Virus record (IMG/VR): IMGVR_UViG_3300015608_002795
Span: 1 to 64,000 of that record
DNA length: 64,000 nucleotides
Source: a virus
Taxonomy: Duplodnaviria > Heunggongvirae > Uroviricota > Caudoviricetes
Strand: one strand, 5' to 3'
Of this stretch, positions 3,962 through 56,922 are shown in pieces. Below the pieces are notes generated by a model. The model saw only the letters and a list, made by a program, of their open reading frames with translations, did no database searches and was not told the DNA's origin. Position 1 is the first letter of the stretch. Each line of letters opens with the position of its first letter. Both the position numbers and the translations under genes were made by a program.

Positions 3962-4975
3962 ATGAGGTATATCAAAAAATATGAATCTTATAATAAACTT
4001 GATGAAATATTAGATATATTTATTGACTTTGAAGAAGAAGGATATGTAGTTAATAGTTTTGAGTTAAAAATAGTTGAGGATAGGGATGATTGGGGTGGAA
4101 ATTTTATATCCGAAAAGTTAAGACATGTTTATGGTAAAAAGTTTATAAACTATCATAAAGATGTAATTATGAGTAAAGGAGAAAAAACATATAAAGCTAA
4201 AGATGCTATTATTGTTAGAATATCAAAAACAAATTATATAAAAGATTTAACGGATAGAAAAATACATTGGAAAAAATTAGACTCTGAAATGTCTAAAAAA
4301 ACAGATGTTATAAAAAATAGATCTGAGTTTTTAAACTTAAGTTTATATGGGGTCATGGCTGAATGGTATCAACTTGGAAAGGCAGTACATGATGATTTTC
4401 GAGGTGAACCATATTTTGGATATGATGTTATTAATGATTGTTATACATTTGCATTTTATCCATCCGAAAAAGTACTTGAAAAATTTTATAATCCACCGTC
4501 TGAAATAAAAGAAAAATTACATTCTATTGTAAATGATCTATTATCTAAACACGAAGGTGGTAAGCCATTTTTTGACGCATTGGATGATGCTATTAAGGAT
4601 GTTTATAATGAAGATATGATTCTTGCTTTATTAAAGGGCAATTCAAATGAATGGATAGCAGCATCTGGTGGATTTGGAGATAGGGTCTATAACCTATGGA
4701 AAAGGGGAAAATTTAGGTGTAAAGGAATAGTTGTCTTCAATGGTAAAATGATGACAAATAAAACCGGAGTAAACAATTGGTATCCACCAGATTTCGATTT
4801 ATCAAACAAGGATTATGTATATGTAGATGATTCTTATTTTTCTGGTGGAACTGCAAGAAAAATAAATGGATTTTTATCTGAACACAATTCAAAAATTAAA
4901 CACGTATCTGTTATATATGATGGATCAAAGGAAAAAAGTAAACTAGTTAAATCATTTTTTAGATACTACAAATGA
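3962..4975 (+). CDS. phosphoribosyltransferase-fold protein (PRPP-binding motif)
   Basis: 'YVYVDDSYFSGGTARKI' matches the type-I PRTase / Prs PRPP-binding loop (hydrophobic-DD-x-x-TGGT). Confidence 0.5.
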   Translation: MRYIKKYESYNKLDEILDIFIDFEEEGYVVNSFELKIVEDRDDWGGNFISEKLRHVYGKKFINYHKDVIMSKGEKTYKAKDAIIVRISKTNYIKDLTDRKIHWKKLDSEMSKKTDVIKNRSEFLNLSLYGVMAEWYQLGKAVHDDFRGEPYFGYDVINDCYTFAFYPSEKVLEKFYNPPSEIKEKLHSIVNDLLSKHEGGKPFFDALDDAIKDVYNEDMILALLKGNSNEWIAASGGFGDRVYNLWKRGKFRCKGIVVFNGKMMTNKTGVNNWYPPDFDLSNKDYVYVDDSYFSGGTARKINGFLSEHNSKIKHVSVIYDGSKEKSKLVKSFFRYYK

Positions 4976-5024
4976 AACACATAAAATTTAATCAAACAAC
5001 TCTTTATAGACCAATTAATGGTCA

Positions 5025-5309
5025 GTGATTTCTTTAAAGCATATGTCATCGCTTGATTTTAATGGAGAGCTTGGATCTATACATATAAAATTATTAGAGG
5101 ATGATGATACATATATTTTAATTTCACTAGGATATAATCATGATATGAAATTTGATATGATGACGTGGACAGATCTTGAAATATGTAAAAATGGAATTCG
5201 TGGGAAAGCATCATGGATGAGACAAGTGAGTCATGGATTAGAAGGATCTTTATTTGATAAAGTAGCAAATTATCTAACAGATAATGAATTAGTTGGCCCT
5301 ATTATTTAA
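5025..5309 (+). CDS. hypothetical protein (94 aa)
   Basis: intact ORF. Confidence 0.35.
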   Translation: MISLKHMSSLDFNGELGSIHIKLLEDDDTYILISLGYNHDMKFDMMTWTDLEICKNGIRGKASWMRQVSHGLEGSLFDKVANYLTDNELVGPII

Positions 5310-5314
5310 ATAAT

Positions 5315-5345
5315 TTTGGTGGGAATAAAAAAAATCGTATCTTTG
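5315..5345 (+). promoter_or_regulatory. Bacteroidetes-type sigma-A promoter (-33 TTTG / -7 TATCTTTG)
   Basis: 'TTTGGTGGG..(20 nt)..CGTATCTTTGTG' read in sequence; motif recurs before most transcription units. Confidence 0.55.
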
Positions 5346-5473
5346 TGAAAACAAAGGAATAAAAATATAATATATACAATTATGAAAATGGTTAATACAA
5401 ATACAAGTTCGTCACGTAGTTCTAACAGCTCGAAAATTCGAAGTTGATTGTATTCTATTGCTATACAATATTG

Positions 5474-5894: not shown

Positions 5895-6467
5895 ATGAAA
5901 TACACAGTATATAAAATAACAAATTTAATAAACGGTAAAATTTATATCGGAGTTCATAAAACAGAAAATTTAGACGATGGATATATGGGATCTGGTAAAA
6001 ATATAAAAAGAGCTATTGACAAATATGGAATTCAAAATTTTAAAAAAGAATATATTAAAATATTTGACAATCAAGAAGATATGTTTAAAATGGAGTCTGA
6101 GTTGGTAAATGAATTATTTTTATCTAGTCGTGAGAATTATAATATAATGAAAGGAGGTCATGGAGGATTTGAACATATAAATAAAAATTGTTGGAATAAA
6201 GAAAGTAGAAAAAATCATCTACAAAAAATATATCATTTGGTTTCAGCTGAAAAAAGAAAGGATATCGGTGCATATATGGGTAAAAACTTTGGGGGTAGTA
6301 ATAGATTAAGAGAGGATGTAATAAATTATAGATTAAAAATACTCGAAACAGTTGATATGTCTAAATATGGTTGGGTAGAAAAAGCTAGTAAATTATTAAA
6401 TATAACACATACACAAGTTAGGAGATTTGTAAATAAATATTATAAAGGAGAATATTATAGAAGATAA
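5895..6467 (+). CDS. GIY-YIG family homing endonuclease
   Basis: 'KYTVYKITNLINGKIYIGVHKT..GYMGSGKNIKRAIDKYG' GIY-YIG core. Confidence 0.8.
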   Translation: MKYTVYKITNLINGKIYIGVHKTENLDDGYMGSGKNIKRAIDKYGIQNFKKEYIKIFDNQEDMFKMESELVNELFLSSRENYNIMKGGHGGFEHINKNCWNKESRKNHLQKIYHLVSAEKRKDIGAYMGKNFGGSNRLREDVINYRLKILETVDMSKYGWVEKASKLLNITHTQVRRFVNKYYKGEYYRR

Positions 6468-12470: not shown

Positions 12471-12666
12471 AGATACAAATTGGATGAATGATAAAATCCA
12501 AGATATAAAAAAGAGAAAAAGAAAGCTCGAATTACTTCAAGATCCTGAAATGAAAAAAAGAATAAAAAAGGACTTGAAACGTGAATATCGTTCTGTAAAA
12601 AGGGGAGAACGCAATCAAAATAATATATATATGAAAAAAGAAATTGATGAATTCTATAGAAAATAA
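12460..12666 (+). CDS. hypothetical basic protein (68 aa)
   Basis: Lys/Arg-rich ORF. Confidence 0.3.
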   Translation: MKVKDTNWMNDKIQDIKKRKRKLELLQDPEMKKRIKKDLKREYRSVKRGERNQNNIYMKKEIDEFYRK

Positions 12667-13366
12667 CTTTTATGTATATGTACATATAAACAAAAATACT
12701 GATTTGCCATTTTATGTAGGATTTGGCCGAAAAAATAGAATACTTGATAAAGGAAGAAGGAGTGCTGAATGGAACGATATTGTTAGTCAATATGGATATT
12801 ATTTTGGTACACTTAAACACAATATGACGAGAGAAGAAGCCAATTTATTTGAAAAGAAATGTATAAAATTTTTTATTGAAATTGGATTCAATCTTGTTAA
12901 TAAAATCAATGGTGGGAGTGGAAATTCTAAAAGAAAGCCATATAGTGAAGAATATAAAAAAATATTATCAGAAAGAGGGAAAAAATATTGGAAATCTTTA
13001 TCCAAAGAAGAAATTGATAAATTTTCACAAAAAATGTCATCTATATTAAAAGGTAAAAAGAAGCCAAAGAGAACAAAAGAGCATTGTAAAAATCTATCAA
13101 TATCACATAAAGGACAAAAAGCATGGAACAAAGGGTTGATACTAAATTATTCAGATGATATAAAATCAAGAATGTCTGATCATTCTAAAAAGAAAGTTAT
13201 AATATTCGACTTAAATGATAATAAAATTGGTGAATTTGATTCAATATCAAATGCAGCAAAAAAAATTGGACTGACCCCCAATAAGGTTAGTAAAATTCTA
13301 ACAGGAAGAATCAAAAAGAGTGAATATAAAATTTTTTATTTAAATGAATTTGGTGAACAAAAATGA
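12644..13366 (+). CDS. GIY-YIG homing endonuclease with NUMOD3 repeats
   Basis: 'NFYVYVHINKNTDLPFYVGFGRKNR..GRRSAEWNDIV' and 'KNLSISHKGQKAWNKG'. Confidence 0.8.
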   Translation: MMNSIENNFYVYVHINKNTDLPFYVGFGRKNRILDKGRRSAEWNDIVSQYGYYFGTLKHNMTREEANLFEKKCIKFFIEIGFNLVNKINGGSGNSKRKPYSEEYKKILSERGKKYWKSLSKEEIDKFSQKMSSILKGKKKPKRTKEHCKNLSISHKGQKAWNKGLILNYSDDIKSRMSDHSKKKVIIFDLNDNKIGEFDSISNAAKKIGLTPNKVSKILTGRIKKSEYKIFYLNEFGEQK

Positions 13367-13614
13367 ATAAAAAAGTAAAAATAGTAAGAGGTAAGTCTCC
13401 TTATATAGCAGATGCTAAAAGCGTTTTAAGTGTTAGGTCTACTTATGATTCTGTGGATTTAAAATTTACCTTTAATTGTGAAAATAGAAAATTATCCATT
13501 ATAGATGAATATAGAAGAAGTCAAGATTATCTATATGGTAAAGAATATCGTGTAGAATACATGGTAGATTTACAATTAGTTAGAGAAGAACAAATTAAAA
13601 AATTATTAAAATGA
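13363..13614 (+). CDS. hypothetical protein (83 aa)
   Basis: coupled ORF. Confidence 0.4.
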   Translation: MNKKVKIVRGKSPYIADAKSVLSVRSTYDSVDLKFTFNCENRKLSIIDEYRRSQDYLYGKEYRVEYMVDLQLVREEQIKKLLK

Positions 13615-14270
13615 AAAGCTATCCTAAAATAGAACATTATAACAAAGGTCCATTTGGCCTGAACTGCTATGCCTTCTATAAGTACGATGGATCTAATTTC
13701 CGAGCAGAATGGAGTAGGAAAAGGGGTTGGTATAAATATGGAACAAGAAATGTAATGGTTGATAAAAACACCCCTATGTTTGGAGATGCAATTGATATAT
13801 TTCTTAATAAATATGGAGAAGATTTAGATGATGTTTTTAGAAAAGAGTACAAAAGGGTTGATAGCTTTGTTGTATTTGGTGAATTTTTTGGTGAACATTC
13901 ATTCGCCGGAAAACATGTAGATGAAGATAAAAAAGATATCATTCTTTTTGATGTAAATCAATTCAAAAGAGGTTTTTTACCTCCTACTGAATTCATTGAT
14001 AATTTTGGGCATTTAGATATACCAAAAATCGTATATAAAGGCATTTACGACGAAGAATTAGTTGATAGAGTTAAATCTAATCAACTTAGTTTAGAAGAAG
14101 GAGTTATCTGCAAAGGCACCATTAAAACAAAATCAGAAGGTGAAGTTGTATGGATGACAAAAATTAAAACAATAGAATGGGTCAATAAAGTTAAATTATT
14201 ATATGGTGAAAAAGCTTTATTGGAAGAATTTAATAACGATTCTAAAATACTGAATGAATATGAATACTAA
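13611..14270 (+). CDS. nucleotidyltransferase (ligase)-like protein, KxDG motif 'KYDGSN'
   Basis: covalent-NMP-ligase motif I near the N-terminus; paired with the downstream ligase-like ORF. Confidence 0.55.
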   Translation: MKSYPKIEHYNKGPFGLNCYAFYKYDGSNFRAEWSRKRGWYKYGTRNVMVDKNTPMFGDAIDIFLNKYGEDLDDVFRKEYKRVDSFVVFGEFFGEHSFAGKHVDEDKKDIILFDVNQFKRGFLPPTEFIDNFGHLDIPKIVYKGIYDEELVDRVKSNQLSLEEGVICKGTIKTKSEGEVVWMTKIKTIEWVNKVKLLYGEKALLEEFNNDSKILNEYEY

Positions 14271-14973
14271 GAAAAGAATATTTAATTTAAGAGGAATAGC
14301 ACCAGACTATCCGAGAATACCTCATTTGGATAAAAATATATCTAAAATGACACATGATGATATTCTCTCTGATAATGCTATTGTCTATCCGATCGAAGGA
14401 TATGTTCAAGAAAAAATAGACGGAGCAAATTTAGGAGTGTCTTGGTATAAAAATGGTCCTATTGTTAGAAATAGAAGTAACATTTTAAAGAAAGGTTATT
14501 CGAAAATTCATACACCATCCAAAGAGCAATTTAAATCTACCTGGAATTGGGTACATGACAATAGAAAAGACATTCAACTTATTTCAGAAATAGTAATGTC
14601 TGAAATAACAATCTATGGAGAATGGATGGTTGCACAGCACTCAATTGCATATAACGGGTTGCCTGATTGGTTTATCGCATATGATATTTGGGTTGTTGAG
14701 GATAATAAGTTTTTATCTCCGGCTAAAGTAGATGAATTATTATCCAAAACTGATATATCTTATATCAAACCATACAAAGCAACTTTAAATAGTGTTTCTG
14801 ATGTTATTAGATGGGCTGAAATGAGGTCTGACTATACAAATGGCGTCAGAGAAGGTATAGTAATTAAGACCGTAGAAGGTGATTTTGTAAAAGATACTTA
14901 CAAAGTGGTAAATAAACACTTTGATAGAAGAGAGAATTTTAATGATAAATTAATTAAAAATAAATTAAAATAA
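14254..14973 (+). CDS. RNA ligase-like protein, motif I 'KIDGANLGV'
   Basis: KxDGxN lysine-adenylylation motif; size and context fit phage Rnl-type enzymes. Confidence 0.6.
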   Translation: MNMNTKKRIFNLRGIAPDYPRIPHLDKNISKMTHDDILSDNAIVYPIEGYVQEKIDGANLGVSWYKNGPIVRNRSNILKKGYSKIHTPSKEQFKSTWNWVHDNRKDIQLISEIVMSEITIYGEWMVAQHSIAYNGLPDWFIAYDIWVVEDNKFLSPAKVDELLSKTDISYIKPYKATLNSVSDVIRWAEMRSDYTNGVREGIVIKTVEGDFVKDTYKVVNKHFDRRENFNDKLIKNKLK

Positions 14974-19152: not shown

Positions 19153-19228
19153 GCTGCCGTCGACTAGTGGTTTATGTCGCAAGACTTTCAATCTTGTGAG
19201 CCGAAGGGCTCTCGCGGGTTCGAATCCC
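19153..19228 (+). tRNA. tRNA, class-II architecture (variable arm GAGCC/GGCTC), anticodon loop CTTTCAA (UUC), A73, 3-bp D-stem
   Basis: acceptor GCTGCCG/CGGCAGT; anticodon stem CAAGA/TCTTG perfect; T-arm GCGGG-TTCGAAT-CCCGT. Confidence 0.55.
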
Positions 19229-19412
19229 GTCGGCAGTACAAAAGTAGTTATCAAAATATCCATTCGGTCAATGGTGACAGGCAATAGACCCTGATACTCC
19301 ATAATGAACGAGTAAAGCTACCTCAAAAGACGTTTTGAGACGCATCGCTTCCGATAGATAACTCACAAGTACTATTATATCATCCATTATGGGGTTTTGG
19401 GTACTTAAATTG

Positions 19413-22818: not shown

Positions 22819-23463
22819 ATGAGATGGTCCCAATTAGAAGTAGAAAATATTATAGAATTAATTAAATGTGGAAAAAGCTATAAAGAAATATCAAGTATTG
22901 TAAATAGAACAGAGTCTAGTATAAGAAACAAAGCAAATGAAATTCAAATTATAACTTCACAATATTATCAAGTTAAAATTGTTAATAAATCTTGCTTAGA
23001 GTGTTCTTCAACTTTTGATTCTTTAGAGTATGAAAATAGAAAATTTTGCTCAAAATCTTGTAGCATAAAACACAATAATAGGTTAAGAAAAAAAAGTAAA
23101 TTTTGTTATAATTGTAAAAATATTTTATCAATAAGACAAAAAAAATTTTGTTGTAGGGAATGTAATAATTCATACAACAAGAATAAAATTTTTGAAAGAA
23201 TATCAAATGGCGACACATCAATATACTTTCAACAATATAAAAAATATTTAATTGAAAAATATGGTGAAAAATGTATGAAATGTGGATGGTCTGAAAGAAA
23301 TCCAATAACAAAAAAAGTTCCTATACAAATGGAACATATAGATGGAAATTCAGAAAATAACAGTATAGAAAATTTAGAATTATTATGTCCAAATTGTCAC
23401 TCATTAACACCAACATTTGGGGCCTTAAATAAAGGCAGAGGAAGAAAAAATAGAAAAAGATAA
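22819..23463 (+). CDS. HNH homing endonuclease (N-terminal HTH, Cys-rich middle, C-terminal HNH)
   Basis: 'MEHIDGNSENNSIENLELLCPNCHSLTPTFG'; paralogue of 32586-33254. Confidence 0.8.
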   Translation: MRWSQLEVENIIELIKCGKSYKEISSIVNRTESSIRNKANEIQIITSQYYQVKIVNKSCLECSSTFDSLEYENRKFCSKSCSIKHNNRLRKKSKFCYNCKNILSIRQKKFCCRECNNSYNKNKIFERISNGDTSIYFQQYKKYLIEKYGEKCMKCGWSERNPITKKVPIQMEHIDGNSENNSIENLELLCPNCHSLTPTFGALNKGRGRKNRKR

Positions 23464-23544: not shown

Positions 23545-23610
23545 GGGGGATTAGCTCAGTTGGCTAGAGCACCTGCCTTGGGTCATCGGTTCGAATCCGA
23601 TATCCTCCAC
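23545..23610 (+). tRNA. truncated tRNA-Pro(UGG)-like gene (3' half of anticodon stem and variable loop missing)
   Basis: GGGGGAT-TA-GCTC-AGTTGGCTA-GAGC-A-CCTGC-CTTGGGT then directly T-arm CATCGG-TTCGAAT-CCGAT and ATCCTCC; 63 nt instead of about 73. Confidence 0.4.
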
Positions 23611-32448: not shown

Positions 32449-32456
32449 CAAAAAAT

Positions 32457-33994: not shown

Positions 33995-34070
33995 TGGCAT
34001 GGCTTAGAGGAAAAGAGCGGTCTCTCATAAGGACTGTCAAGTGGGTTCGAACCCCACGCATGCTACTAAT
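33995..34070 (+). tRNA. tRNA (CAU anticodon hairpin GGTCT-CTCATAA-GGACT); acceptor pairing imperfect
   Basis: T-arm GTGGG-TTCGAAC-CCCAC; D-stem GCT/AGC. Confidence 0.35.
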
Positions 34071-34130
34071 TCGGATTGGAAATTACCACTTCGGACTTTT
34101 AATATATATATAATAAAAATTAAAAAAGAA

Positions 34131-43435: not shown

Positions 43436-44641
43436 ATGAACATAAAAGAAACATTTTTAAGATTGACAAGTAAGACTTATCCACATGGAAGTGAGTCTGA
43501 ACTGTACGATCTATTAATCGACGGATTGGAATTTGACGAGTTTGGTAACAGATACATACAAGTTGGCGAAAGCACCTGTATGTTTACTTCTCACCTGGAT
43601 ACAGCCACATCTGCTAAGACAGATGTTAATCATGTTTTTGAAGGTAATATTATTAAGACAGATGGTACATCAATTTTAGGCGCAGATGATAAGGCAGGTG
43701 TTACTATCATGTTTTATATGATTGAGAATAAAGTGCCTGGTCTATATTATTTCTTCTTAGGTGAAGAGGTTGGTTGTATCGGATCTAAGAAACTATCTAC
43801 TAAATTAAATACTACAAAAGAATATCCATTTGATAAGATCAATAAGGTTATTTCATTTGATAGGCGTGGATATGACTCTGTTATCACCTATCAAGCAAGT
43901 AGCAGATGCTGTTCTGATGAATTCGCTCAAGCTTTAGCAGATGACCTAAATAAGTGTGGTGTAGCTTTTAATTATAAGCCAGATCCAACAGGTATCTATA
44001 CGGACTCTGCTCAATTTACACGAATTTATCCAGAATGTACCAACATTTCAGTTGGATATAAGTCTGAGCACACTTTCTCTGAAAATCAAGATATTGATCA
44101 CTTAGAAGAATTAGGCAAAGCTTGTTTAAACGTTGAATGGGAAAAACTGCCTGTAACAAGAGATCCAAGCAAGTATGAATACAGAAGTTATAGTTATGGA
44201 TACGGTGATTGGGAGTCTGAATGGGAAGATTATTATGGATATGGATCTTATGGAAATAGATCTAGAATGATTTCCAACGCAGCATCCGCATCATCATATA
44301 CACCGCCTGAAAAAGATGAAACTTTACACTTCTATGATGAAGAATACCAATTTGTATCTTCTCTTAAGAAGAATAAGCTTAGTGATAGATTAATTTCTGT
44401 AGATTTTGCACCTGAAAGAATTGATGATGAAAAATCATCCATCATTGAAATACTTGAATCACTTGAAGTAGATTATAAGGCGGTCAAATGGGATGGATTC
44501 AAACTTGTGGTCAAACACAATGAGCCAGCAGATCATACTACAGAATGCTTGAGAGCTGATCTAACTGAATTCTTACCAAATCTTGATTTCTGGAAAAAAG
44601 AAATTGAAGATTATAAAGGAGTTAGTGATAAGATTTATTAA
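43436..44641 (+). CDS. M20/M28/M42-family metallopeptidase-like protein
   Basis: 'HLDTATSAKTDV' and 'GADDKAGVTIM' metal-ligand motifs. Confidence 0.55.
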   Translation: MNIKETFLRLTSKTYPHGSESELYDLLIDGLEFDEFGNRYIQVGESTCMFTSHLDTATSAKTDVNHVFEGNIIKTDGTSILGADDKAGVTIMFYMIENKVPGLYYFFLGEEVGCIGSKKLSTKLNTTKEYPFDKINKVISFDRRGYDSVITYQASSRCCSDEFAQALADDLNKCGVAFNYKPDPTGIYTDSAQFTRIYPECTNISVGYKSEHTFSENQDIDHLEELGKACLNVEWEKLPVTRDPSKYEYRSYSYGYGDWESEWEDYYGYGSYGNRSRMISNAASASSYTPPEKDETLHFYDEEYQFVSSLKKNKLSDRLISVDFAPERIDDEKSSIIEILESLEVDYKAVKWDGFKLVVKHNEPADHTTECLRADLTEFLPNLDFWKKEIEDYKGVSDKIY

Positions 44642-44651: not shown

Positions 44652-45116
44652 ATGAAAACATTAGCAATATACGCTGGATCATTTAATCCATTTCACATTG
44701 GTCATTTGAATATTTTGGAAAAGGCAGAAAAAATTTTTGGAAAAGGAAATGTACTAGTTGCCATGGGTGTAAATCCAGCTAAATTGTCGTTAGATGAAGT
44801 AAGAAAAGGAGCCTTAGAAAAAATGTCTCTTTTAGAGAATAAGATTGGAAGAAAGGTTGAAGCCTATTTTTCCTTTCTACATGAGTTTATTGAACAAAAA
44901 GAGAAAGAAGGATACGATGTTGTATTAGTTAGAGGTCTAAGAAATGGTGATGATCTCGCTTATGAAAATAATCAATTGAGTTTCATACATGACTTTAAAC
45001 CTGAGGTTAAATCAGTGTTTATTATGTGTGATAAGCAATATGAACACGTTTCATCTTCTTCTATTCGTCAATTGGAATCTTTTATTCCAGGTAGTGGGTC
45101 CAAATATTTAGTATGA
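44652..45116 (+). CDS. nucleotidyltransferase of the NMNAT/PPAT (cytidylyltransferase-like) family
   Basis: 'IYAGSFNPFHIGHLNIL' is the (H/T)xGH adenylyltransferase signature (GxFxPxHxGH). Confidence 0.65.
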   Translation: MKTLAIYAGSFNPFHIGHLNILEKAEKIFGKGNVLVAMGVNPAKLSLDEVRKGALEKMSLLENKIGRKVEAYFSFLHEFIEQKEKEGYDVVLVRGLRNGDDLAYENNQLSFIHDFKPEVKSVFIMCDKQYEHVSSSSIRQLESFIPGSGSKYLV

Positions 45117-46156: not shown

Positions 46157-46229
46157 GGTCGTTTAGGGGAGAGGTCGTCCCTGCCGGCATGTGGGCCGGA
46201 GAGCGGTGGTTCGAATCCATCAGCGACCG
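46157..46229 (+). tRNA. tRNA-His (GUG)-like with 6-nt anticodon loop ATGTGG and extra 5' G(-1)
   Basis: acceptor GGTCGTT/AGCGACC preceded by G; D-arm GGGG-AGAGGTCGT-CCCT; anticodon stem CCGGC/GCCGG perfect; T-arm GGTGG-TTCGAAT-CCATC. Confidence 0.5.
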
Positions 46230-46284
46230 CGATTCCCTGATGAAGGGACTAGTTAGACTTCTAAGGTTATCAAAAAGTCAGGAT

Positions 46285-48296: not shown

Positions 48297-48629
48297 ATGA
48301 CAATTGTTTTAAATAAAATTTACCCGAAATTAGATTTAAGGAGACTAATAGTTAATAGGATTAATGTTTTAGTCTATACTTATAAAAGGGAATTAGATAT
48401 TGAATCTATTTACTTCAATACACCAATTGATGGAATAAAATTCTATAAATTATTCCCTCATTATACAGAAACAGATTTTGTCTCGGATTGGTTTTCAAAA
48501 AGAATTAGTGGTAGTACCCTATTAAAAATTTTAGATTGTTTAAAAAATCGAGATTTTTATGGTTATTGTAGAACTACAACAAACCAACTTGTAAAAATCA
48601 CACCTAGAAAAAAAATTAAAAATGTTTAA
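48297..48629 (+). CDS. hypothetical protein (110 aa)
   Basis: intact ORF. Confidence 0.4.
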   Translation: MTIVLNKIYPKLDLRRLIVNRINVLVYTYKRELDIESIYFNTPIDGIKFYKLFPHYTETDFVSDWFSKRISGSTLLKILDCLKNRDFYGYCRTTTNQLVKITPRKKIKNV

Positions 48630-49338
48630 AAAAGATTATAAATATAGTATAAATTACGAAACAGAAGGAAACACTGATTGCAAAAATCATGGATGTGATG
48701 ATGAAGGAATATGCCGTTGTTTTCGCATAACAAATGTTGTAATAAGAGATATTGATGTTCTATACATATCAAATTCTATTTTTAGTGAAATATTTAACAC
48801 AAAATCCACGCAATATAAGAGGGATAATAAATTAAATCAAATTTTGTACGGATTTAATCAAGAAATTGATCTTTACTGTATAGATAGAATATTGAGGATT
48901 AATAAATTATGGGATCCAGAAAATTGGGATCCTCATTGGAGTAGTGGGTACTATGGTGATGAAGTAGATTCAATAGAAATTTCTGATGTAGTTTATCAAA
49001 AAATATGCACAGATATTGATCATATTTTATCTCTTCCAAATTTAAAAGAAAAAATTGAGTATCTACTAATTCTAGAATATGGATATTTATTAGAAAAAAT
49101 AAAAACACGAAACTATGAAGTTATTGAAGTAAATAAATCAGATATAATTTTTGGACAAGACTTCTATCGAAAAAAAGTTGACAATGAATTAGAGTATTAT
49201 ACGGATAATCATTTCGATTTAATAAAGGGAGTATGTTTATTGGATGATGGTAAATGGAGGGTAATAGATGGATATCATAGATTATTAAGTAGTAAAAAGG
49301 ATAAGGTAAAAATTATAAGTATATATGAAAACAAGTAA
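48622..49338 (+). CDS. protein with C-terminal ParB/sulfiredoxin-like nuclease motif
   Basis: 'WRVIDGYHRLLSS' resembles the ParB-like 'DGHHR' box; Cys/His cluster near the N-terminus. Confidence 0.5.
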   Translation: MFKKDYKYSINYETEGNTDCKNHGCDDEGICRCFRITNVVIRDIDVLYISNSIFSEIFNTKSTQYKRDNKLNQILYGFNQEIDLYCIDRILRINKLWDPENWDPHWSSGYYGDEVDSIEISDVVYQKICTDIDHILSLPNLKEKIEYLLILEYGYLLEKIKTRNYEVIEVNKSDIIFGQDFYRKKVDNELEYYTDNHFDLIKGVCLLDDGKWRVIDGYHRLLSSKKDKVKIISIYENK

Positions 49339-49696: not shown

Positions 49697-50260
49697 ATGG
49701 TATCAAATAGAGAAACAAAGTACAAAGGGCATTTCAAAGTTGATGAATTAACCCTTAAATCCAGAAGTGGGAAAGAAATCAAAAGAGAAGTAATGGTTCG
49801 TAAAGATGCTGTTGCAGCGATTGTTTATGATACTAAAAAAGATAAATTTATTTTTGTCTCACAATGGAGGCCTGGTAGCAATTCTGATATTCTTGAAATT
49901 GTAGCAGGTACATTGGATGTACCTGGTGAGGACCCAAGGGAAGCTATGATAAGAGAAATTGACGAAGAAATTGGATATAAAACAGACTCAATTGTTTTAA
50001 TTGATGAATGTTATATGTCACCAGGCGGTACTACTGAGGTAATTAGTATTTACTATTGTGAAGTGTCAGAACAAACACATGTAGGTGGTGGATTAGAAGA
50101 TGAGGATATTGACATTGTTGTAATGGATTTAAAAGAGGTTCTTTCAACTAGATTTAAAGATGCTAAAACAATTATTGGTGTGAACTACATCAAATATAAT
50201 CAAGGTAAATTTTCAGTAAAATTTATACCTGCTACTAAAAATAATAAAAATGATGATTAA
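49697..50260 (+). CDS. Nudix hydrolase (ADP-ribose pyrophosphatase-like)
   Basis: Nudix box 'GTLDVPGEDPREAMIREIDEEIGY' (Gx5Ex7REUxEExGU). Confidence 0.8.
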   Translation: MVSNRETKYKGHFKVDELTLKSRSGKEIKREVMVRKDAVAAIVYDTKKDKFIFVSQWRPGSNSDILEIVAGTLDVPGEDPREAMIREIDEEIGYKTDSIVLIDECYMSPGGTTEVISIYYCEVSEQTHVGGGLEDEDIDIVVMDLKEVLSTRFKDAKTIIGVNYIKYNQGKFSVKFIPATKNNKNDD

Positions 50261-50957
50261 AGAATATTCTGAATATTCGGGTAAAAGTGTTGATATACTT
50301 GAATCTAATATATCTATTTGTAATAAATTAATTACTGAAGAAATCAGTTCATATCAAAAAAATAGAGAAAAAAGCACAATCGATATATTAGTAGATTCAA
50401 AAAATTTAATCTATGATATTATCAGGTATCCATTTAATATTGACAAAGCTCATTTACTTGCTAAGTATCAATTATTTTCACCATATATGATGAATATGAT
50501 TATATCGTCTGGATATACATCTTTTTTAGAATATATGGGTGGTGTGGGTGTTTTGTCTGAAATCATAAAAGAAAATTTAATTAACTCAAAAGTAACATTT
50601 AATAGTATCAACAATGAGATTTTTCATTTCTCAAAATGGAGGTTTGAGAAAAAAGGATTAGATATATCAACTATAGGATACATTGATAAAGATAAGAATT
50701 ATGATGTTGTTGTATCCGATGGATTTTTACAATATTTAGATTCCCCTGATCAAGAATATTTAGTTCAATCAATGATTGATATTACATCTAAAAATGGTTT
50801 ACTATGTCTACTTGTTGATATCAGTGGAGAAAATCCAGAATCTCCACTAAAGAAAAATGTTGATATCTTAAGAATACATTCTATTCTTGAGCAATCTGAT
50901 ATGGTTTGTATTTATGGAAAAAATACATTTTCATCACTATGGAAGAAAATGATTTAA
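50250..50957 (+). CDS. SAM-dependent methyltransferase-like protein
   Basis: glycine-rich motif I 'FLEYMGGVGVLS' and acidic 'VVVSDGFLQYL'; paralogue of 55479-56195 with a shared C-terminus 'YGKNTFSSxWKK'. Confidence 0.5.
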   Translation: MMIKEYSEYSGKSVDILESNISICNKLITEEISSYQKNREKSTIDILVDSKNLIYDIIRYPFNIDKAHLLAKYQLFSPYMMNMIISSGYTSFLEYMGGVGVLSEIIKENLINSKVTFNSINNEIFHFSKWRFEKKGLDISTIGYIDKDKNYDVVVSDGFLQYLDSPDQEYLVQSMIDITSKNGLLCLLVDISGENPESPLKKNVDILRIHSILEQSDMVCIYGKNTFSSLWKKMI

Positions 50958-51307
50958 AGGAATTACTGGAATATATGAGAGAGGAACTTAAAGATGATCT
51001 GTTTTCTAAGAAATTTTTCGTATCTTTGGTTAAGAATGTTATATTCTATAATGTAAAAAAAGATAAAATATATTCTTTTAAAAAATTATCAGTATTGGGA
51101 TTTTCGATATTAATATCTCAATATAGAACCAAAGAATTTTTCAAAGATGATGATAAATATGATTATATGAGGTTTTTTAAACTAAATTCTAAAGAACTAG
51201 ATTCGGATTCAGTGAAGGGATTTATTATTTTGAAAAATAATATCGAAAATTTAGAATATATAAAGAGTATATCAAGAGATAACAAATTAAAAAAGATAAT
51301 AGAATGA
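50939..51307 (+). CDS. hypothetical protein (about 122 aa from the ATG at 50939)
   Basis: track ORF 50906 overlaps the methyltransferase end; internal ATG chosen. Confidence 0.4.
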   Translation: MEENDLKELLEYMREELKDDLFSKKFFVSLVKNVIFYNVKKDKIYSFKKLSVLGFSILISQYRTKEFFKDDDKYDYMRFFKLNSKELDSDSVKGFIILKNNIENLEYIKSISRDNKLKKIIE

Positions 51308-51795
51308 ATGTAAATAAATTAAAAGAACCTTATGTCCTAATTTTAATTGGACCTCCATTGGTTGGTAAAACAACATGGATAAAAAAGAATTTTGCTAATA
51401 AGGATGTAAAACTAATAAGTCGAGATCAGATAGTTTTAGATGTATATGGTAGTGATGATTATGACGAAGCATTCAAAAATGTTGATCAGAAAAGGGTTAA
51501 TAATGTATTAGAATCAACACTATTAAAAGCCTCGGATAATGGTGAGAATGTTATTGTGGATATGACAAACTTAACTTCTAAAAGAAGAAAACACACACTA
51601 AGTTATTTTGATGATAACTACAGTAAGATTGCGGTTATTTTTCCACCTGTTGATTGGGATGAGATTCAAAAAAGAAATGAAAAAAGGAAAAAAGAAGAAA
51701 ACAAAAATATTCCTGAACACGTATTAAAAACTATGTTATCTTCTTATCAACCAGTTTCACATGAAGAAGGATTCGATAAAGTTGTTTCATTATGA
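51304..51795 (+). CDS. P-loop kinase (polynucleotide-kinase-like kinase domain)
   Basis: Walker A 'LILIGPPLVGKTTWIKK' at the N-terminus and a Walker-B-like 'VIVDMTN'; 163 aa. Confidence 0.6.
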   Translation: MNVNKLKEPYVLILIGPPLVGKTTWIKKNFANKDVKLISRDQIVLDVYGSDDYDEAFKNVDQKRVNNVLESTLLKASDNGENVIVDMTNLTSKRRKHTLSYFDDNYSKIAVIFPPVDWDEIQKRNEKRKKEENKNIPEHVLKTMLSSYQPVSHEEGFDKVVSL

Positions 51796-52322
51796 ATGAA
51801 CTAGAAATATTATATAAAGAAGCTATGGAAAGGCTTGAGTGGCTAGAAAATGAATTAAAACGCCGGCCGTCTGATGTTATTAATGGTAGGATCTTAGAAT
51901 TAAATAATATCATTATTAAAATTCAACAAATATTAATATCAAAGATTAAATAATTATCGTACTTCAGGTGCCTTGTTTGTTATCATATCAGATATAATTT
52001 TCCTAATTAGGAAAACTAAACCCTCAAATTGATCACTTTTAAATAAAAAATTTGGATTTCTATCATAGTTATTAATATTTCTAACTTCTATTAAAAACCA
52101 TTCATCTTTTATTTTCGAAATATCTATTTCCTTTTTTCTAACTTTTAGTCGAATAAGACTATTATATATTTTTTCCAATTTAGAATTAATGTCAAAATTA
52201 TTAATTATATCTTTGATAGTATTAATTTCATCATCAGTGAAATTATCTATATCATAATTGTATATATTATTTTTTGAAATTTGAATAAAAATTTGTATAT
52301 TTAATTACAAAATAATCTAATT

Positions 52323-52940
52323 ATGACTAAGTATGATAAGATGAAAATTTCTCTACGTTATTGGTTATTGGGAATGGCTCAATCAAATCCTGATTATCTG
52401 AAATGTGTTGAGGCTTTAGAATTCGCATCTAAGTTTCATACCGGAAAACGTAAGGATGGTGTAACAAACGAATTTGAGCACCAATTAACAATTACACATT
52501 ACATCAGAAGTCTTATTAACAACTTGGAATATCCATCTGAAACAATTTGTGTTTCATTATTACATGATGTTCCAGAAGATTATGACGTTTCGTTTGATGA
52601 ACTTACTCAAAAATTTGGACCTATTGTAAGTGGATCTACTGAAAAATTAACTAAGTTTTATAGAGGAGTAAAGAAGACTAACGAGGTTTATTTTAGTGGA
52701 ATTGCATCTGACCCAATTGCCTCAATTGGAAAAGGTGGTGATAGGATTCATAATTTACAATCAATTGTTGGAGTTTTTACCAAAACAAAACAAGAGGAAT
52801 ATGTTAAAGAAGCCGAAGATTGGATTTTACCATCATTAAAAGAAGCAAGAAGATTATTTCCTAAACAAGAACTCGCTTATGAAAATATAAAACTTATGAT
52901 GAAATCACAAATAGAATTAATAAAATATACTTGGAATTAA
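52323..52940 (+). CDS. HD-domain phosphohydrolase
   Basis: 'EHQLTITHYIR..LLHDVPEDYD' His..HD..D metal-binding pattern (SpoT/MazG-like HD). Confidence 0.6.
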   Translation: MTKYDKMKISLRYWLLGMAQSNPDYLKCVEALEFASKFHTGKRKDGVTNEFEHQLTITHYIRSLINNLEYPSETICVSLLHDVPEDYDVSFDELTQKFGPIVSGSTEKLTKFYRGVKKTNEVYFSGIASDPIASIGKGGDRIHNLQSIVGVFTKTKQEEYVKEAEDWILPSLKEARRLFPKQELAYENIKLMMKSQIELIKYTWN

Positions 52941-52949: not shown

Positions 52950-53645
52950 ATGCCGAATTACGTAATTAATACAATCAAAGTTGAAGGTGAACAATCCATT
53001 ATTGATGAATTAATGTTCTCTGTTAAATCAGATGAATCTAATTTTGACTTTGAAAAAATTATTCCATCGCCAGAGTCTATGAAAATAGAGTCTGGTACTA
53101 ATACTGATATCTCCTTAGCTATTTATGAATTTGAAAAAACTGGATCAGATATTAGATTAGTAAATTATCTATCATATCCTTGGGTAAAGACAGAAAATAT
53201 AACAAATACATCCGAACTCTGTGAATACATTAAAAAGTGTAATAGATACAGTAAAGAATTAGGTAGACTTGCCTATGAAAATATAATCCAATATGGATGT
53301 AAAGATTGGTATGAGTGGAATTGTAAATACTGGGGCACAAAATGGAATTCTTCTGATTCTTCATCTTGTGGAAATACTATATCATTTCAGACAGCATGGT
53401 CTACTCCATATCCTGTTATTGAAGAGTTGTCAAAAAAGTACCCTACAATTAGCTTTACTATAAATTATGCAGATGAAGATATTGGTAGTAATTGTGGAAC
53501 TTATAAATTACAAAATGGTAATCTATTAGAAAATATAAAAGGAGATACTGTATTTGCTTGTGAAATGTGGGGATATGATCCCGCAGACTATGATGAAGCT
53601 TATGCGAGAGATAAAAGAATTGATGAAATAATTGAAGAAAAATGA
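52950..53645 (+). CDS. hypothetical protein (231 aa), Cys-rich
   Basis: intact ORF. Confidence 0.5.
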   Translation: MPNYVINTIKVEGEQSIIDELMFSVKSDESNFDFEKIIPSPESMKIESGTNTDISLAIYEFEKTGSDIRLVNYLSYPWVKTENITNTSELCEYIKKCNRYSKELGRLAYENIIQYGCKDWYEWNCKYWGTKWNSSDSSSCGNTISFQTAWSTPYPVIEELSKKYPTISFTINYADEDIGSNCGTYKLQNGNLLENIKGDTVFACEMWGYDPADYDEAYARDKRIDEIIEEK

Positions 53646-54109
53646 TAACACTAATTGCAGCATGTTCGAAAAATAGAGTTATTGGTAAGGATAATCAATT
53701 ACCATGGCATCTGTCCGAGGACTTAAAAAGATTTAAAAAAATTACGACTGATAAGGTTGTTTTAATGGGTCGTAAAACATATGAATCTATTGGAAGACCA
53801 CTTCCAAATAGAACTAATCTTGTCTTAACAAGAGACAGGACATTTGCACCACAAGGTGTTTATGTCTATAATCATTTAGAAGAAGTTTTACCAATATTCA
53901 ATGATATTGTTGTTATTGGTGGTGGTGAAATTTATAAACAAATGATTAAAAGAGCAGATGTTATAGAACTTACTTTAGTTGATAAAGAATTTGATGGAGA
54001 TGCCTATTTTCCAGAAATTGATGATACGTGGGAAGAAGAAAGTAGAGAAACGTTTAATAACGGTGATTTTGATTATCATTTTATAACTTATAAAAGAAAA
54101 TATGCTTAA
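53642..54109 (+). CDS. folA: dihydrofolate reductase
   Basis: 'MITLIAACSKNRVIGKDNQLPWHLSEDLKRFKKIT..VLMGRKTYESIG..NLVLTR' canonical DHFR N-terminal motifs; 155 aa. Confidence 0.85.
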   Translation: MITLIAACSKNRVIGKDNQLPWHLSEDLKRFKKITTDKVVLMGRKTYESIGRPLPNRTNLVLTRDRTFAPQGVYVYNHLEEVLPIFNDIVVIGGGEIYKQMIKRADVIELTLVDKEFDGDAYFPEIDDTWEEESRETFNNGDFDYHFITYKRKYA

Positions 54110-54485
54110 GAGTAAAACATTATATAGTGTAGACCCCAAAGACTATCTTAGAGGTAATATTCAAGTAACACTTAGGGTTATTGGTGTTTTTGATACGAAT
54201 AAGGTACATTGGTCATATTATGCTGTATCTACTACTACATCAGTATCAACTAACACTTTAAATATGACAGATGATATTGGAAGCGGTAAGGGAATAATTT
54301 CTTGTAATACTGATTTTGTAAGTCTACTCTTATTTTATCCGAATTTATACGGTGTTAAATTTGCTGATATGGATTCTGCCAAAAAATACATAGATGATTT
54401 TAAAATAAAATGGGAAACAGGCTCGAATAACACGATCCAAGAAGTTCGTGATCAAAAATTAAAAGAACTAACAGATGAAAGCTAA
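54102..54485 (+). CDS. hypothetical protein (127 aa)
   Basis: coupled ORF. Confidence 0.45.
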   Translation: MLKSKTLYSVDPKDYLRGNIQVTLRVIGVFDTNKVHWSYYAVSTTTSVSTNTLNMTDDIGSGKGIISCNTDFVSLLLFYPNLYGVKFADMDSAKKYIDDFKIKWETGSNNTIQEVRDQKLKELTDES

Positions 54486-55482
54486 TATATGGTTTCTCAT
54501 GCCATCAACTGATGCTCCAACTGGTGGTATAAATAACTGCTATAGATTATGTCAAATAGCAGACGAATTGGGGATAAAAGCAAGGGTATTAAGTGAATAT
54601 CCATATGATTTTTGTGATCCAACTGATCTAATAAAGTATTGGGTAGAAATACCAAATGTTGGATTTAGATATGATAAGTATAATCTACCTTGTATTCAAG
54701 AAGGTGATATCGTCGTTTTACCTGAAATTTACGGATGGAGACCACACTTTGATGTTCCTGTTAGAAGAGTTACATATTTACAAAACTGGGCTCTAATGAG
54801 TGAACACTCTTGGGAAAATCACTATTGGACATATAACAATTGGACACATTTATCATATTGTATAGAGGCAGCTCATTATGAGAGATATCAACATCGAACA
54901 AGATTACCAATTGATAGACCAGTAGATTGGCCAGATACTGCTATGATGGTGGGAAAGAAAAAATTAAAATGGACATCCGTTACACCTTATTTCGACTTTG
55001 AAAATTATTCAACCGGGATCAATGACCCAAATAAAATATTAATGCTGCCTAGAAAAATGGGTAATACAATGGATATTTTTAAAAAGGCGTTTGGTGATAA
55101 ACTTGTGGTAGTAGATAATGTAACACCAAAAGAACTACGAGATATCTACAAGGATGTAGGCACTCTTATTATACCTTCTCCAGCTGAAGGATTATCATTT
55201 CCTATGGTGGAAGCCTTGTTATCCGGATGTTGTGTTGTATCTTGGGAATGTGGAGCACCTGAGGAATATCTAATTCATGGAGTTACATCTATGATGGCTG
55301 AGTTCGGTGATATACATGGATTAATAAATCACACTAAATATTTAGTTAGTAATCCGGATGAAATGAAAAAAATGTCGGAACAAGGAAGAAACTTAGTAAC
55401 CAAATTATATACAAAAGAAAAGACAAAGAATGAAATGTATATTGCTTATTATTCATCATTAAAAATCAATCCAGAGTTATGA
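54475..55482 (+). CDS. glycosyltransferase, GT1-like (GT-B)
   Basis: C-terminal 'PSPAEGLSFPMVEALLSGCCVVS' fits the GT4/GT1 'EGFGLxxxEAMAxGxPVI' nucleotide-sugar binding motif. Confidence 0.55.
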   Translation: MKANIWFLMPSTDAPTGGINNCYRLCQIADELGIKARVLSEYPYDFCDPTDLIKYWVEIPNVGFRYDKYNLPCIQEGDIVVLPEIYGWRPHFDVPVRRVTYLQNWALMSEHSWENHYWTYNNWTHLSYCIEAAHYERYQHRTRLPIDRPVDWPDTAMMVGKKKLKWTSVTPYFDFENYSTGINDPNKILMLPRKMGNTMDIFKKAFGDKLVVVDNVTPKELRDIYKDVGTLIIPSPAEGLSFPMVEALLSGCCVVSWECGAPEEYLIHGVTSMMAEFGDIHGLINHTKYLVSNPDEMKKMSEQGRNLVTKLYTKEKTKNEMYIAYYSSLKINPEL

Positions 55483-56195
55483 TAGGAGAATTTAGAAATA
55501 GCCAAATGATAAATGATTATGTGGAGTTTAGTGGTGAGAACATGACTAACTTAGTCAATAAACTATCAAATTATCAATTGATAAACAAAACCGAGTTTCA
55601 TAAATATCAGAATAGTTTTGACTTTTATGAGGAATCTGATACATATATTTATGACCTATTATCCAATAATACAAGTAAAGATAAATTAATTAGTAAGATT
55701 AATTTATTTTCACCATTCTTATTTAAGACAGTTATTAATCCAAATTATAAATCATTTTTAGAATTTGGTGGTGGATTAGGATTATTCTGTGAGATTATTA
55801 AAATGATGAGGCCAGATATGTCAGTTAATTACGCAGATATAAAATCAAAAATATCAGATTTTGCTAAATGGCGATTTGAAAAAAGAAATATTGATGTTAA
55901 TCAAATAATCATACCACAAAATGATTTTGAATTTCCTCAAAAATATGATGTTATTTTTACAGATGCTGTAATAGAACATTTAGAAGAAGAACAACAAGTA
56001 AGGTATATGCAAAAATTAGCATCTTATGTAAGTAACAATGGGGTTTTAATACCACTTATTGATCTTACCGGAAAGGAAGAAATTATGCCAATGCATAATG
56101 ATGTTAATATTATAAATTTACATAACGTTTTAGAAAATTCTGGAATGTATTGTTTATATGGAAAAAATACTTTTTCATCAATATGGAAAAAATAA
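55479..56195 (+). CDS. SAM-dependent methyltransferase-like protein (paralogue of 50250-50957)
   Basis: 'FLEFGGGLGLFC' motif I; C-terminus 'CLYGKNTFSSIWKK' nearly identical to the paralogue. Confidence 0.5.
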   Translation: MIGEFRNSQMINDYVEFSGENMTNLVNKLSNYQLINKTEFHKYQNSFDFYEESDTYIYDLLSNNTSKDKLISKINLFSPFLFKTVINPNYKSFLEFGGGLGLFCEIIKMMRPDMSVNYADIKSKISDFAKWRFEKRNIDVNQIIIPQNDFEFPQKYDVIFTDAVIEHLEEEQQVRYMQKLASYVSNNGVLIPLIDLTGKEEIMPMHNDVNIINLHNVLENSGMYCLYGKNTFSSIWKK

Positions 56196-56202
56196 AAATA
56201 AT

Positions 56203-56922
56203 ATGAGAGAACAATTAATAAGAGTATTTACCGATACAGTAAGTCATATAGAAAATGGAGAGTATAATAAAGATCTTCATTGTAGTAAGAATAGATTGAG
56301 TTCAATTGAATTGGATTCCGATATAATAAAGAAACCAGGAATTATCACAGTTGAGAATCTTGATTGTATTGAGGTTGCGAGTCGCCTATCAAAAGAAGGA
56401 AAGACATGTATGCTTAATATGGCATCTTATAAGAAGCCGGGTGGTGGAGTTAAAAGTGGAGCAATGGCTCAAGAAGAAGAATTGGCTAGAAGGTCTAATT
56501 TAATGTATGGATTACCACAAGAATTTTATCCATTAAGTATTGATGAATATATTTATACACAAGATGTTACCTTTTTCAAAAATAAATATTATCAGGTAAT
56601 ACCATCATTTGATTGTGATATTATTACAATTGCTGCTATTAATAGAAGTGAATCAACACCAGCTAACTATGAGGAAATCATGGAAGAAAAAATATCTAAT
56701 ATGCTATACATACCATATAAAAATGGATGTAAGAATTTAGTACTTAGTGCATTTGGATGTGGAGTGTTTAAAAATGATCCACACTTTGTATCTGAGTTAT
56801 TTAAGAGTCTTTTGGATAGTGGGTTTTCTTCACTTTATAGTAGAGTATCATTCGCTATATTAAATGATAGAAACTCGGTTGGTAGTAATTATCAAATTTT
56901 TAAAGAAACATTATTGAATTAA
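56203..56922 (+). CDS. DUF2263/bacterial-type poly(ADP-ribose) glycohydrolase-like macrodomain protein
   Basis: 'MASYKKPGGGVKSGAMAQEEELARRS' matches the PARG signature GGG-x6-8-QEE. Confidence 0.6.
   Translation: MREQLIRVFTDTVSHIENGEYNKDLHCSKNRLSSIELDSDIIKKPGIITVENLDCIEVASRLSKEGKTCMLNMASYKKPGGGVKSGAMAQEEELARRSNLMYGLPQEFYPLSIDEYIYTQDVTFFKNKYYQVIPSFDCDIITIAAINRSESTPANYEEIMEEKISNMLYIPYKNGCKNLVLSAFGCGVFKNDPHFVSELFKSLLDSGFSSLYSRVSFAILNDRNSVGSNYQIFKETLLN

Follow-up and report, generated by a model that had tools for sequence, protein, structure and literature searches.

Four nucleotide-chemistry genes in a huge-phage accessory region: probable separate acquisitions, with PARG and Nudix enzymes proposed to remove ADP-ribose, rather than an NAD+ salvage module

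The 64,000-nt stretch of viral DNA analysed here (the window; positions 1 to 64,000 of IMG/VR record IMGVR_UViG_3300015608_002795, Caudoviricetes) carries four genes with catalytic signatures of nucleotide or ADP-ribose chemistry: a phosphoribosyltransferase (PRTase)-like gene at 3962-4975, a small adenylyltransferase gene at 44652-45116, a Nudix hydrolase gene at 49697-50260 and a macrodomain gene of the poly(ADP-ribose) glycohydrolase (PARG) type at 56158-56922. An earlier reading of the letters without database searches (the sequence-only reading) had joined the four into a single NAD+ and ADP-ribose turnover module, treated as one feature from 3962 to 56922. The four open reading frames (ORFs) do lie on the plus strand where they were first placed, and a search of all six reading frames found each signature just once in the window; because each motif-bearing ORF also matches a profile, the signatures are not chance motifs. 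The span as one feature did not hold up, as dozens of unrelated genes lie within these 53 kb, along with the majority of the window's 41 tRNA genes.

The window (~29% GC) belongs to a huge uncultivated phage and forms an accessory region of its genome; the nearest relative at the protein level (45-70% identical) is LR756502.1, a 642-kb "uncultured phage". No close nucleotide relative was found among the INPHARED phages, for which a megablast search with the part of the window at 43-58 kb returned a single 54-bp match. The same sequence is also present on a 159-kb JGI metagenome contig (Ga0182412_100168), the IMG/VR record UViG_3300020577_009873 overlaps the window as well, and a search for contigs encoding the last gene of the window found none on record. 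Inspection covered the window and a few kb past its end, ~46 window ORFs were scanned with Pfam, alongside NCBIfam, PHROGs and PDB searches, and 42 homologue loci from IMG/VR and GenBank were compared, each taken as ±10 kb around the homologue. We infer a Bacteroidota host because the window holds a TonB-dependent receptor gene and the PARG and PRTase have homologues in Lak and crAss-like phages.

The adenylyltransferase gene (44652-45116, plus strand) encodes a 154-aa protein of the HIGH family (PF01467, cytidylyltransferase-like, E 8e-14) that resembles phosphopantetheine adenylyltransferase (PPAT, CoaD). The GSFNPFHIGH motif, from which it had been taken for a relative of the NMN adenylyltransferases (NMNAT), is present, but that identity falls: the protein is PPAT-like by both sequence and fold, an outcome that the sequence-only reading had itself named in advance as counting against it. 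The best NCBIfam model is coaD TIGR01510 (92.8 bits, aa 5-144, full-length). Models for NMNAT and the nicotinate mononucleotide adenylyltransferases (NaMNAT) matched only at aa 1-65 around the HxGH motif and stayed under their cut-offs (TIGR00482 28.6 bits against 112, TIGR01527 17.0 against 181, TIGR01526 13.8 against 341), leaving no model-based membership in NadD, NadM, NadR-N or the archaeal NMNAT. In the PDB, the 34 best sequence matches are without exception phosphopantetheine adenylyltransferases (best E 4.7e-15), no NaMNAT turns up before E 0.12, and among the HIGH nucleotidyltransferases the structure is not nearest to NMNAT or NaMNAT.

Set beside bacterial CoaD and the annotated PPAT genes of Caulobacter jumbo phages, the protein agrees in fold and length (~155 aa) and shares the HxGH, K42, RGLR, D95, Y98-E99 and SSS motifs. 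All ATP-binding and catalytic residues of the Salmonella and Acinetobacter CoaD are kept (T/S10, H18, K42, R88, R91, D95, Y98, E99 and S128-130). The phage protein differs in its score, which does not reach the TIGR01510 equivalog cut-off of 103.3, in the HD-like fusions found within its clade, and in three positions replaced across that clade (L102Q; N106 to I, M, L or C; E134 to Q, N or T), the window protein having L102Q, N106I and E134Q. From the E. coli structures, we take L102, N106 and E134 to line the 4'-phosphopantetheine pocket. Scores of clade members against TIGR01510 range from 81 to 104 bits, and one (L108) passes. Judged from its sequence, the protein is most likely a CoaD-family adenylyltransferase making dephospho-CoA, with real residual doubt about the acceptor substrate because the presumed pantetheine-pocket residues differ.

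The PPAT-like clade is common in large viral contigs. Among its distant viral members and its closest cellular relatives (Lentisphaeria/Victivallales), the PPAT-like part forms the C-terminal domain of 300-476-aa fusion proteins, such as those in the Lentisphaeria/Victivallales metagenome-assembled genomes (L010 3374-4474 and L012 3332-4474) and in the viral loci L094-L110. The HD-like partner domain, with the pattern EPHRYYH..H...LFHD..YDP..NEE.SA...EYQ..Y..GR..FL, is not recognised by Pfam, where matches to HD and HD-CE are sub-threshold only, and a hidden Markov model built from 14 fusion proteins found no such partner in the six-frame window. The fusion protein is also the form of the homologue in Lentisphaeria, where the canonical rsmD-coaD context was not seen. 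One fusion, L102, additionally carries a weakly CoaE-like P-loop kinase (25.6 bits; cut-off 27), which is suggestive only and was not used as evidence. The sole conserved neighbour of the PPAT-like gene is an M28-type peptidase-like gene, located in the window at 43436-44641 (plus strand; PF04389 E 4e-5, phrog_4191 E 4e-70) and adjoining it in L083, L088, L089, L092 and L093; a PDB search with a conserved 757-aa neighbour of the PPAT-like gene gave no match.

The PRTase-like ORF (3962-4975, plus strand, 337 aa) is a two-part protein, composed of a variable N-terminal extension of ~165 aa (3962-4453), which occurs in three homologues only, and a conserved C-terminal core of ~170 aa (aa ~165-337; 4454-4972) with the PRPP loop YVYVDDSYFSGGT that had first drawn attention to it. 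Searched alone, the ORF had no Pfam or PHROG match, and phmmer against the PDB returned noise only. The family to which it belongs has 454 representative clusters, some members of which consist of the core as a stand-alone protein of ~160 aa. Crass-like and huge phages carry the family widely, and the window protein retains an intact PRPP/ribose-5-phosphate loop. The type-I assignment follows from direct PF00156 matches in 26 of 80 family members and from the matches of the family profile in the PDB, limited to the PRPP-loop region of PurF, PyrR, OPRT and HPRT. The protein has the Rossmann-like core and the loop of the form hydrophobic-DD-x3-G-x-T typical of the superfamily, and its fold is closest to APRT, XPRT and OPRT.

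The expectation of a PRTase fold was therefore borne out, while the proposed kinship with NadV or Namat (type II) or with Prs or Adps was not, the fold being type I and nearest to purine and pyrimidine PRTases. PF04095 is the type-II PRTase family, and the known nicotinamide and nicotinate PRTases are type II; neither PF04095 nor PF18127 matched any scanned ORF. The domain found in NadV and Namat is PF04095; Adps belongs to the Prs family (PF14572) and has a two-domain Prs architecture. The PRTase-like protein is not a two-domain Prs (PF13793/PF14572) encoded next to a Namat gene.

A known relative of the PRTase-like protein is crAss001 gp59 ("orotate/hypoxanthine phosphoribosyltransferase"), a Bacteroidota phage gene of the same family with 29% identity over the core. 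The window protein differs in its 165-aa N-terminal extension and in its neighbours, which are tRNA genes and homing endonucleases, whereas gp59-type homologues in crAss001-like phages sit directly after two polynucleotide kinase (PNK)/phosphatase genes in a DNA pol I/ThyX block. Downstream in the window, a small ORF (5025-5309, plus strand, 94 aa, no Pfam match) resembles the C-terminal extensions of the PRTase-like proteins P0007 and P0008; in two relatives a counterpart forms the C-terminal end of the same protein as the core, and its homologues lie downstream of the PRTase in L112. Pfam found no domain besides PF00156 in ten long fusion members of the family. Clustering and Pfam analysis of the PRTase neighbours in 14 loci revealed no recurrent or NAD-related partner, the genes seen being only a capsid gene, one with an amidinotransferase fold, a 2H/Acb1-like gene and a DNA methylase, and inspection of the contigs around the PRTase gene brought nothing further of interest. 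The 2H-phosphoesterase/Acb1-like gene (anti-CBASS family) lies near the PRTase-like gene in the viral contig L113 (10499-11080), and a second one was seen near a homologue of the methyltransferase described below in the viral contig L132 (8767-9312).

The Nudix hydrolase (49697-50260, plus strand; PF00293 E 2.6e-13) belongs to the YffH/AdpP family, the ADP-ribose or nucleoside diphosphate (NDP)-sugar pyrophosphatase type, as the subfamily model TIGR00052 is passed at 86.2 bits (cut-off 79.55). The box, described at first as perfect, retains an intact REx2EE catalytic core; its full form, G-x6-E-x7-REIxEExGY, is one residue longer than the canonical G-x5-E. The expected ADP-ribose pyrophosphatase type is supported by the TIGR00052 score and by the PDB match to the ADP-ribose pyrophosphatase 8wv3 (E 1.6e-20, 77.2 bits), and a Pro 15 residues past the box lines up with the SPG of an ADP-ribose pyrophosphatase of known structure. 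The GDP-mannose pyrophosphatase NudK (3o52, E 5e-20, 75.6 bits) is indistinguishable from 8wv3 by score, and neither the ADP-ribose-type nor the GDP-mannose-type equivalog model of NCBIfam is reached. ADP-ribose is thus a plausible substrate as far as sequence comparison goes. A scan of IMG/VR with the Nudix protein found no relative. Upstream of the gene, a 238-aa ORF (48622-49338) without a Pfam or PHROG match ends in ...RVIDGYHRLL, a ParB/sulfiredoxin-like DGxHR motif.

The macrodomain protein (56158-56922, plus strand) was correctly recognised as a bacterial-type PARG (DUF2263/TIGR02452). It passes PF10021 (E 4.6e-21, 76.2 bits, cut-off 23.5) and TIGR02452 (124.9 bits, cut-off 50), and its PDB matches are the PARGs of D. 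radiodurans (1.2e-18) and T. curvata (7e-16), to both of which it aligns through both catalytic loops, including the GCGVF diphosphate-binding loop; the signature GGGVKSGAMAQEE at 56440-56478 and FGCGVFKNDP both align with the D. radiodurans enzyme. The bacterial-type motif is real, with a spacing of GGG-x7-QEE in place of the x8 first given, inside the accepted x6-8 range. Public gene calls start the gene at 56158 in place of the 56203 of the earlier ORF, and this start is supported by the alignment to the LR756502 homologue, which spans 255 columns against a 254-aa product. LR756502.1, every Lak megaphage and Bacillus phage G (gp114) carry homologues, and a scan of IMG/VR found one relative.

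Bacterial-type PARGs have been shown to take ADP-ribose off the 2'-OH of RNA and off 5'-phosphate ends that carry it, and the Deinococcus PARG gene shares its operon with genes for an RNA/DNA ligase and for an HD-phosphatase/PNK (PMC11833690). The window PARG shares with D. radiodurans DRB0099, S. coelicolor SCO0909 and T. curvata PARG the family, the GGG-x6-8-QEE motif and the diphosphate-binding loop, and its region, like the DRB0100-DRB0099-DRB0098 operon, has an RNA-ligase and PNK context. It differs in being phage-encoded and ~30-35% identical to these proteins, in having a class-I S-adenosylmethionine (SAM) methyltransferase as immediate partner, and in the position of the RNA ligases, which are 20-40 kb off and not operonic. 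Three PF09414 RNA-ligase genes are present (13611-14270 and 14254-14973 in tandem, and 35047-35658), and together with a PNK-like kinase (51304-51795) they point to a heavy investment in RNA repair. Reversal of defensive ADP-ribosylation, as proposed for the PARG, is plausible.

The four genes do not behave as a unit. They lie at 4.0, 44.7, 49.7 and 56.2 kb in the window, 4-53 kb apart, and their homologues in LR756502.1 are scattered (PRTase at 60.9 kb, PARG at 361.8 kb, PPAT at 414.3 kb), with only the PPAT retaining its neighbours and no Nudix homologue detected in that genome. A second member of the set was found in none of the 42 loci. With neither physical linkage nor co-inheritance in these comparisons, the four-gene module could not be upheld.

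The Nudix and PARG genes lie at either end of a stretch that also encodes a methyltransferase-like protein without a Pfam match of its own (50250-50957, overlapping the 3' end and stop codon of the Nudix gene), a P-loop polynucleotide-5'-kinase-like protein (51304-51795; PF13671 E 5.6e-24, phrog_505 polynucleotide kinase; in the PDB, Pnkp1 4xrp at E 2.4e-7 and T4 PNK), an HD_4 protein (52323-52940; PF13328 E 6e-9) similar to SpoT-type or small alarmone hydrolases (in the PDB, SpoT/RelA hydrolase domains and the small alarmone hydrolase 6z3o), a dihydrofolate reductase (53642-54109; PF00186 on the identical gene in L001, and in the same place in the L131 block) and the class-I SAM methyltransferase (55479-56195; PF08242 E 2.2e-8) upstream of and overlapping the PARG start, all on the plus strand. 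The two methyltransferase-like ORFs are paralogous (36% identity, E 2e-50), only the second matches SAM-methyltransferase Pfam models, and the family had no tblastn match in INPHARED phages. A minus-strand ORF (51954-52178) interrupts the block in the window. In L131, a more compact relative, the Nudix, methyltransferase-like, PNK-like kinase, HD_4, dihydrofolate reductase, methyltransferase and PARG genes form one 4.6-kb co-directional block. The methyltransferase-PARG pairing is kept in L131 and absent in L132 and L133, an Asp-protease-like ORF fills the PARG slot in L134, and in more distant relatives the methyltransferase sits in unrelated contexts. Because the PARG slot is replaced in L134 and the distant methyltransferase contexts are unrelated, the proximity of Nudix and PARG is lineage synteny with replaceable parts and no obligate pairing. 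The HD_4 protein, a stand-alone protein kept beside the PNK-like kinase in relatives, is a candidate degrader of (p)ppGpp or (p)ppApp.

The comparison with the NAD+ reconstitution pathways of phages (NARP1, NARP1-AP, NARP2 and NARP3, with defining components taken from the primary papers) leads away from an NAD+ pathway as well. No Nampt/NAPRTase, Prs, NadR, PnuC or second HIGH nucleotidyltransferase was found in the ~46 ORF Pfam scans, the NCBIfam scan and a motif sweep of the window, and the unscanned ORFs cannot hold Nampt/NAPRTase, Prs, NadR or PnuC because they are too short. The suggestion of a NARP-like pathway thus lacks any core gene of NARP1, NARP2 or NARP3 in the window, and the NARP1-AP components are also absent. 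The NARP2 of Vibrio phage KVP40 (the Nampt NadV and the NMNAT-Nudix protein NatV) is similar in being phage-encoded and in combining a HIGH-family nucleotidyltransferase with an ADP-ribose-type Nudix domain. The window differs in having no Nampt (PF04095), in a nucleotidyltransferase that is PPAT-like and not NMNAT, and in a Nudix protein that is unfused and encoded 4.6 kb from the nucleotidyltransferase, with tRNA genes and several unrelated ORFs between. NARP1 and NARP1-AP (Adps, Namat and the Poa1p-like Macro phosphatase Adpp) share with the window the ADP-ribose-centred chemistry, a macrodomain and a PRPP-loop protein. NARP1 is a tight operon; Adps has the two domains of a Prs homologue, Namat belongs to the type-II PRTases and Adpp is a PF14519/PF01661/PF20016 macrodomain; in contrast, the window PRTase has a single type-I domain nearest to APRT, the macrodomain is a PF10021 PARG, and the two are 52 kb apart. 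The PARG is not an Adpp, the gene for which encodes a Poa1p-like macrodomain and lies within two genes of Adps and Namat; its own domain is PF10021, and neither Adps nor Namat is found near it. The PnuC and NadR pair of NARP3 was likewise not found among the ~46 scanned ORFs, where NadR models match only the HxGH of the PPAT-like gene.

Taken together, it is on balance probable that the four genes are separate acquisitions that do not reconstitute NAD+, with the PARG and Nudix enzymes devoted to the removal and disposal of ADP-ribose, a CoaD-type PPAT and a type-I PRTase. The PARG and Nudix hydrolase are likely the only two of the four to share chemistry. The PARG would cleave ADP-ribose off ribose-linked adducts (poly(ADP-ribose), ADP-ribose on RNA 2'-OH and ADP-ribose-capped 5'-phosphate ends), modifications that ADP-ribosyltransferases of the host or of competitors could introduce, and the Nudix hydrolase would then split the freed ADP-ribose into AMP and ribose-5-phosphate, the outcome being repair or counter-defence and not the rebuilding of NAD+. 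The PPAT-like enzyme would adenylylate 4'-phosphopantetheine to dephospho-CoA, and it and the PRTase-like gene would be independent accessory genes. This removal reading is the most economical for the PARG and Nudix pair because bacterial PARGs act on ADP-ribosylated RNA and the window is full of tRNA and RNA-repair genes. The scheme of PARG followed by Nudix is not new and has already been proposed for jumbo phages, in which a Macro/NADAR protein generates ADP-ribose and a Nudix enzyme cleaves it to AMP (Iyer et al. 2021; PMC7824862). The window resembles that scheme in encoding a macrodomain-superfamily hydrolase and a Nudix enzyme in one huge-phage accessory region with a predicted flow to AMP; it differs in the PARG subtype of its macrodomain and in a Nudix linkage that is loose and not kept outside close relatives. 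Several points weigh against this reading. The PPAT-like protein stays short of the CoaD cut-off and has replaced pocket residues, and the acceptor substrate in a clade with HD-like fusions could differ from phosphopantetheine. NAD-salvage genes may lie elsewhere in the genome, beyond the window and the few kb that follow it. The Nudix substrate may be an NDP-sugar in place of ADP-ribose, given the near-equal NudK score and a region rich in glycosyltransferases, the closeness of Nudix and PARG, seen only in close relatives, may be plain synteny, and no ADP-ribosyltransferase partner or target was identified in the material inspected.

A joint neutralisation of several nucleotide-based host defences by an island at 49.7-56.9 kb is possible, though we would hold it only tentatively. 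In it, the Nudix enzyme would degrade signals derived from ADP-ribose, the PNK would repair RNA ends, the SpoT-like HD protein would hydrolyse alarmones and the PARG would reverse ADP-ribosylation. The family assignments, the compact co-directional block of L131, the activity of PARGs on ADP-ribosylated RNA (PMC11833690) and the framework of jumbo-phage "counter-nucleotide and NAD+-centred systems" (PMC7824862) are all in its favour. Yet the block also carries dihydrofolate reductase, glycosyltransferase and methyltransferase genes, is interrupted by the minus-strand ORF, lacks the PARG in L134 and is not kept in LR756502.1. Rather unlikely, in our view, is a set of four metabolic or auxiliary genes that share no pathway, namely a Nudix enzyme that trims NDP-sugars (NudK-like), a PARG regulating ADP-ribosylation by unseen transferases of the phage itself, a PPAT that boosts CoA and a PRTase that salvages bases of host nucleic acid. 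The equality of the NudK and ADP-ribose pyrophosphatase scores fits this account, as do the GT1, GT2 and GT6 genes inside the window and the DegT and epimerase genes just past its end on the same strand, the replaceable PARG slot, the position of crAss001 gp59 in a nucleotide-metabolism block, and the lack of co-occurrence of any two of the genes in more distant relatives; a shared context is hinted at, on the other hand, by the compact block in which close relatives keep Nudix and PARG with the PNK-like kinase and SpoT-like HD genes, and by the paralogous methyltransferase genes that adjoin both.

The original proposal of a split, non-canonical NAD+ salvage and ADP-ribose turnover, in which PARG and Nudix feed ribose-5-phosphate or ADP-ribose, the PRTase couples nicotinamide and the adenylyltransferase makes NAD+, is highly improbable. 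All four domains do handle adenylate, ribose-phosphate or ADP-ribose chemistry, and gut jumbo phages commonly carry NAD+ synthesis genes (PMC11662467). Against this stand the PPAT-like sequence and fold of the adenylyltransferase, a type-I PRTase nearest to APRT, XPRT and OPRT where nicotinamide and nicotinate PRTases are type II, the absence of a Prs/Adps domain and of Nampt, NadR and PnuC from the window, and genes that are unlinked and do not co-occur; a free ADP-ribose pyrophosphatase would moreover destroy the substrate of NARP1. It is also quite unlikely that one or both of the orphan enzymes have a new specificity. The PRTase-like family, which has an invariant PRPP loop and falls into no characterised subfamily, could carry out an undescribed phosphoribosyl transfer, for example to a modified base, a nucleic-acid end or an ADP-ribose-derived substrate, and the PPAT-like clade, usually fused to the HD-like domain, could adenylylate a substrate other than 4'-phosphopantetheine (NMN is conceivable), with the HD domain hydrolysing the product.

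If true, the NAD+ reading would amount to a fourth, fold-divergent route of NAD+ reconstitution in phages; the evidence argues against it, and this spares a costly experimental pursuit. Roles in NAD pathways cannot be assigned from catalytic motifs as short as HxGH or the PRPP loop. The PARG common to huge phages (LR756502.1, Lak and phage G) offers candidates against RNA- or DNA-ADP-ribosylating defences, because bacterial PARGs have newly been shown to be active on ADP-ribosylated RNA. Two phage-enriched families, the type-I PRTase-like family and the HD-associated PPAT-like clade, are of interest along with this PARG.

Among the remaining contents of the window are genes for an SPFH protein, ClpB and several glycosyltransferases, and the TonB-dependent outer-membrane receptor (27343-29274) is phage-encoded with Plug and beta-barrel domains, an uncommon phage cargo. 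Past the PARG, the ORF at 57448-57954 starts with MKLEIEKKF, an ExExK-like motif tentatively reminiscent of the CYTH triphosphate-tunnel enzymes; it matches only PHROG 6660 and nothing in Pfam or the PDB. The 41 tRNA genes lie between 2653 and 46983 (e.g., 2653-2743, 19153-19239, 31532-31619 and 32271-32542). Many are long (83-91 nt) for isoacceptors that are usually short-armed, namely Lys (91 and 89), Glu (87), Asn (88), Cys (88), Val (87), Thr (86), Asp (85) and Gln (83), and could contain introns or unusually long variable arms; two (33379-33452 and 46157-46230) were called with an undetermined anticodon. Three aminoacyl-tRNA synthetase ORFs look truncated (1764-2531, 23560-24486 and 37589-38758; TyrRS/TrpRS-type, an AlaRS N-terminal piece and a weak class-I match), and GIY-YIG, HNH and NUMOD homing-endonuclease genes are scattered among them (1067-1858, 5895-6467, 12644-13366, 22819-23463, 25845-26564 and 34041-34733), which suggests that the synthetase genes are split or interrupted by introns or inteins.

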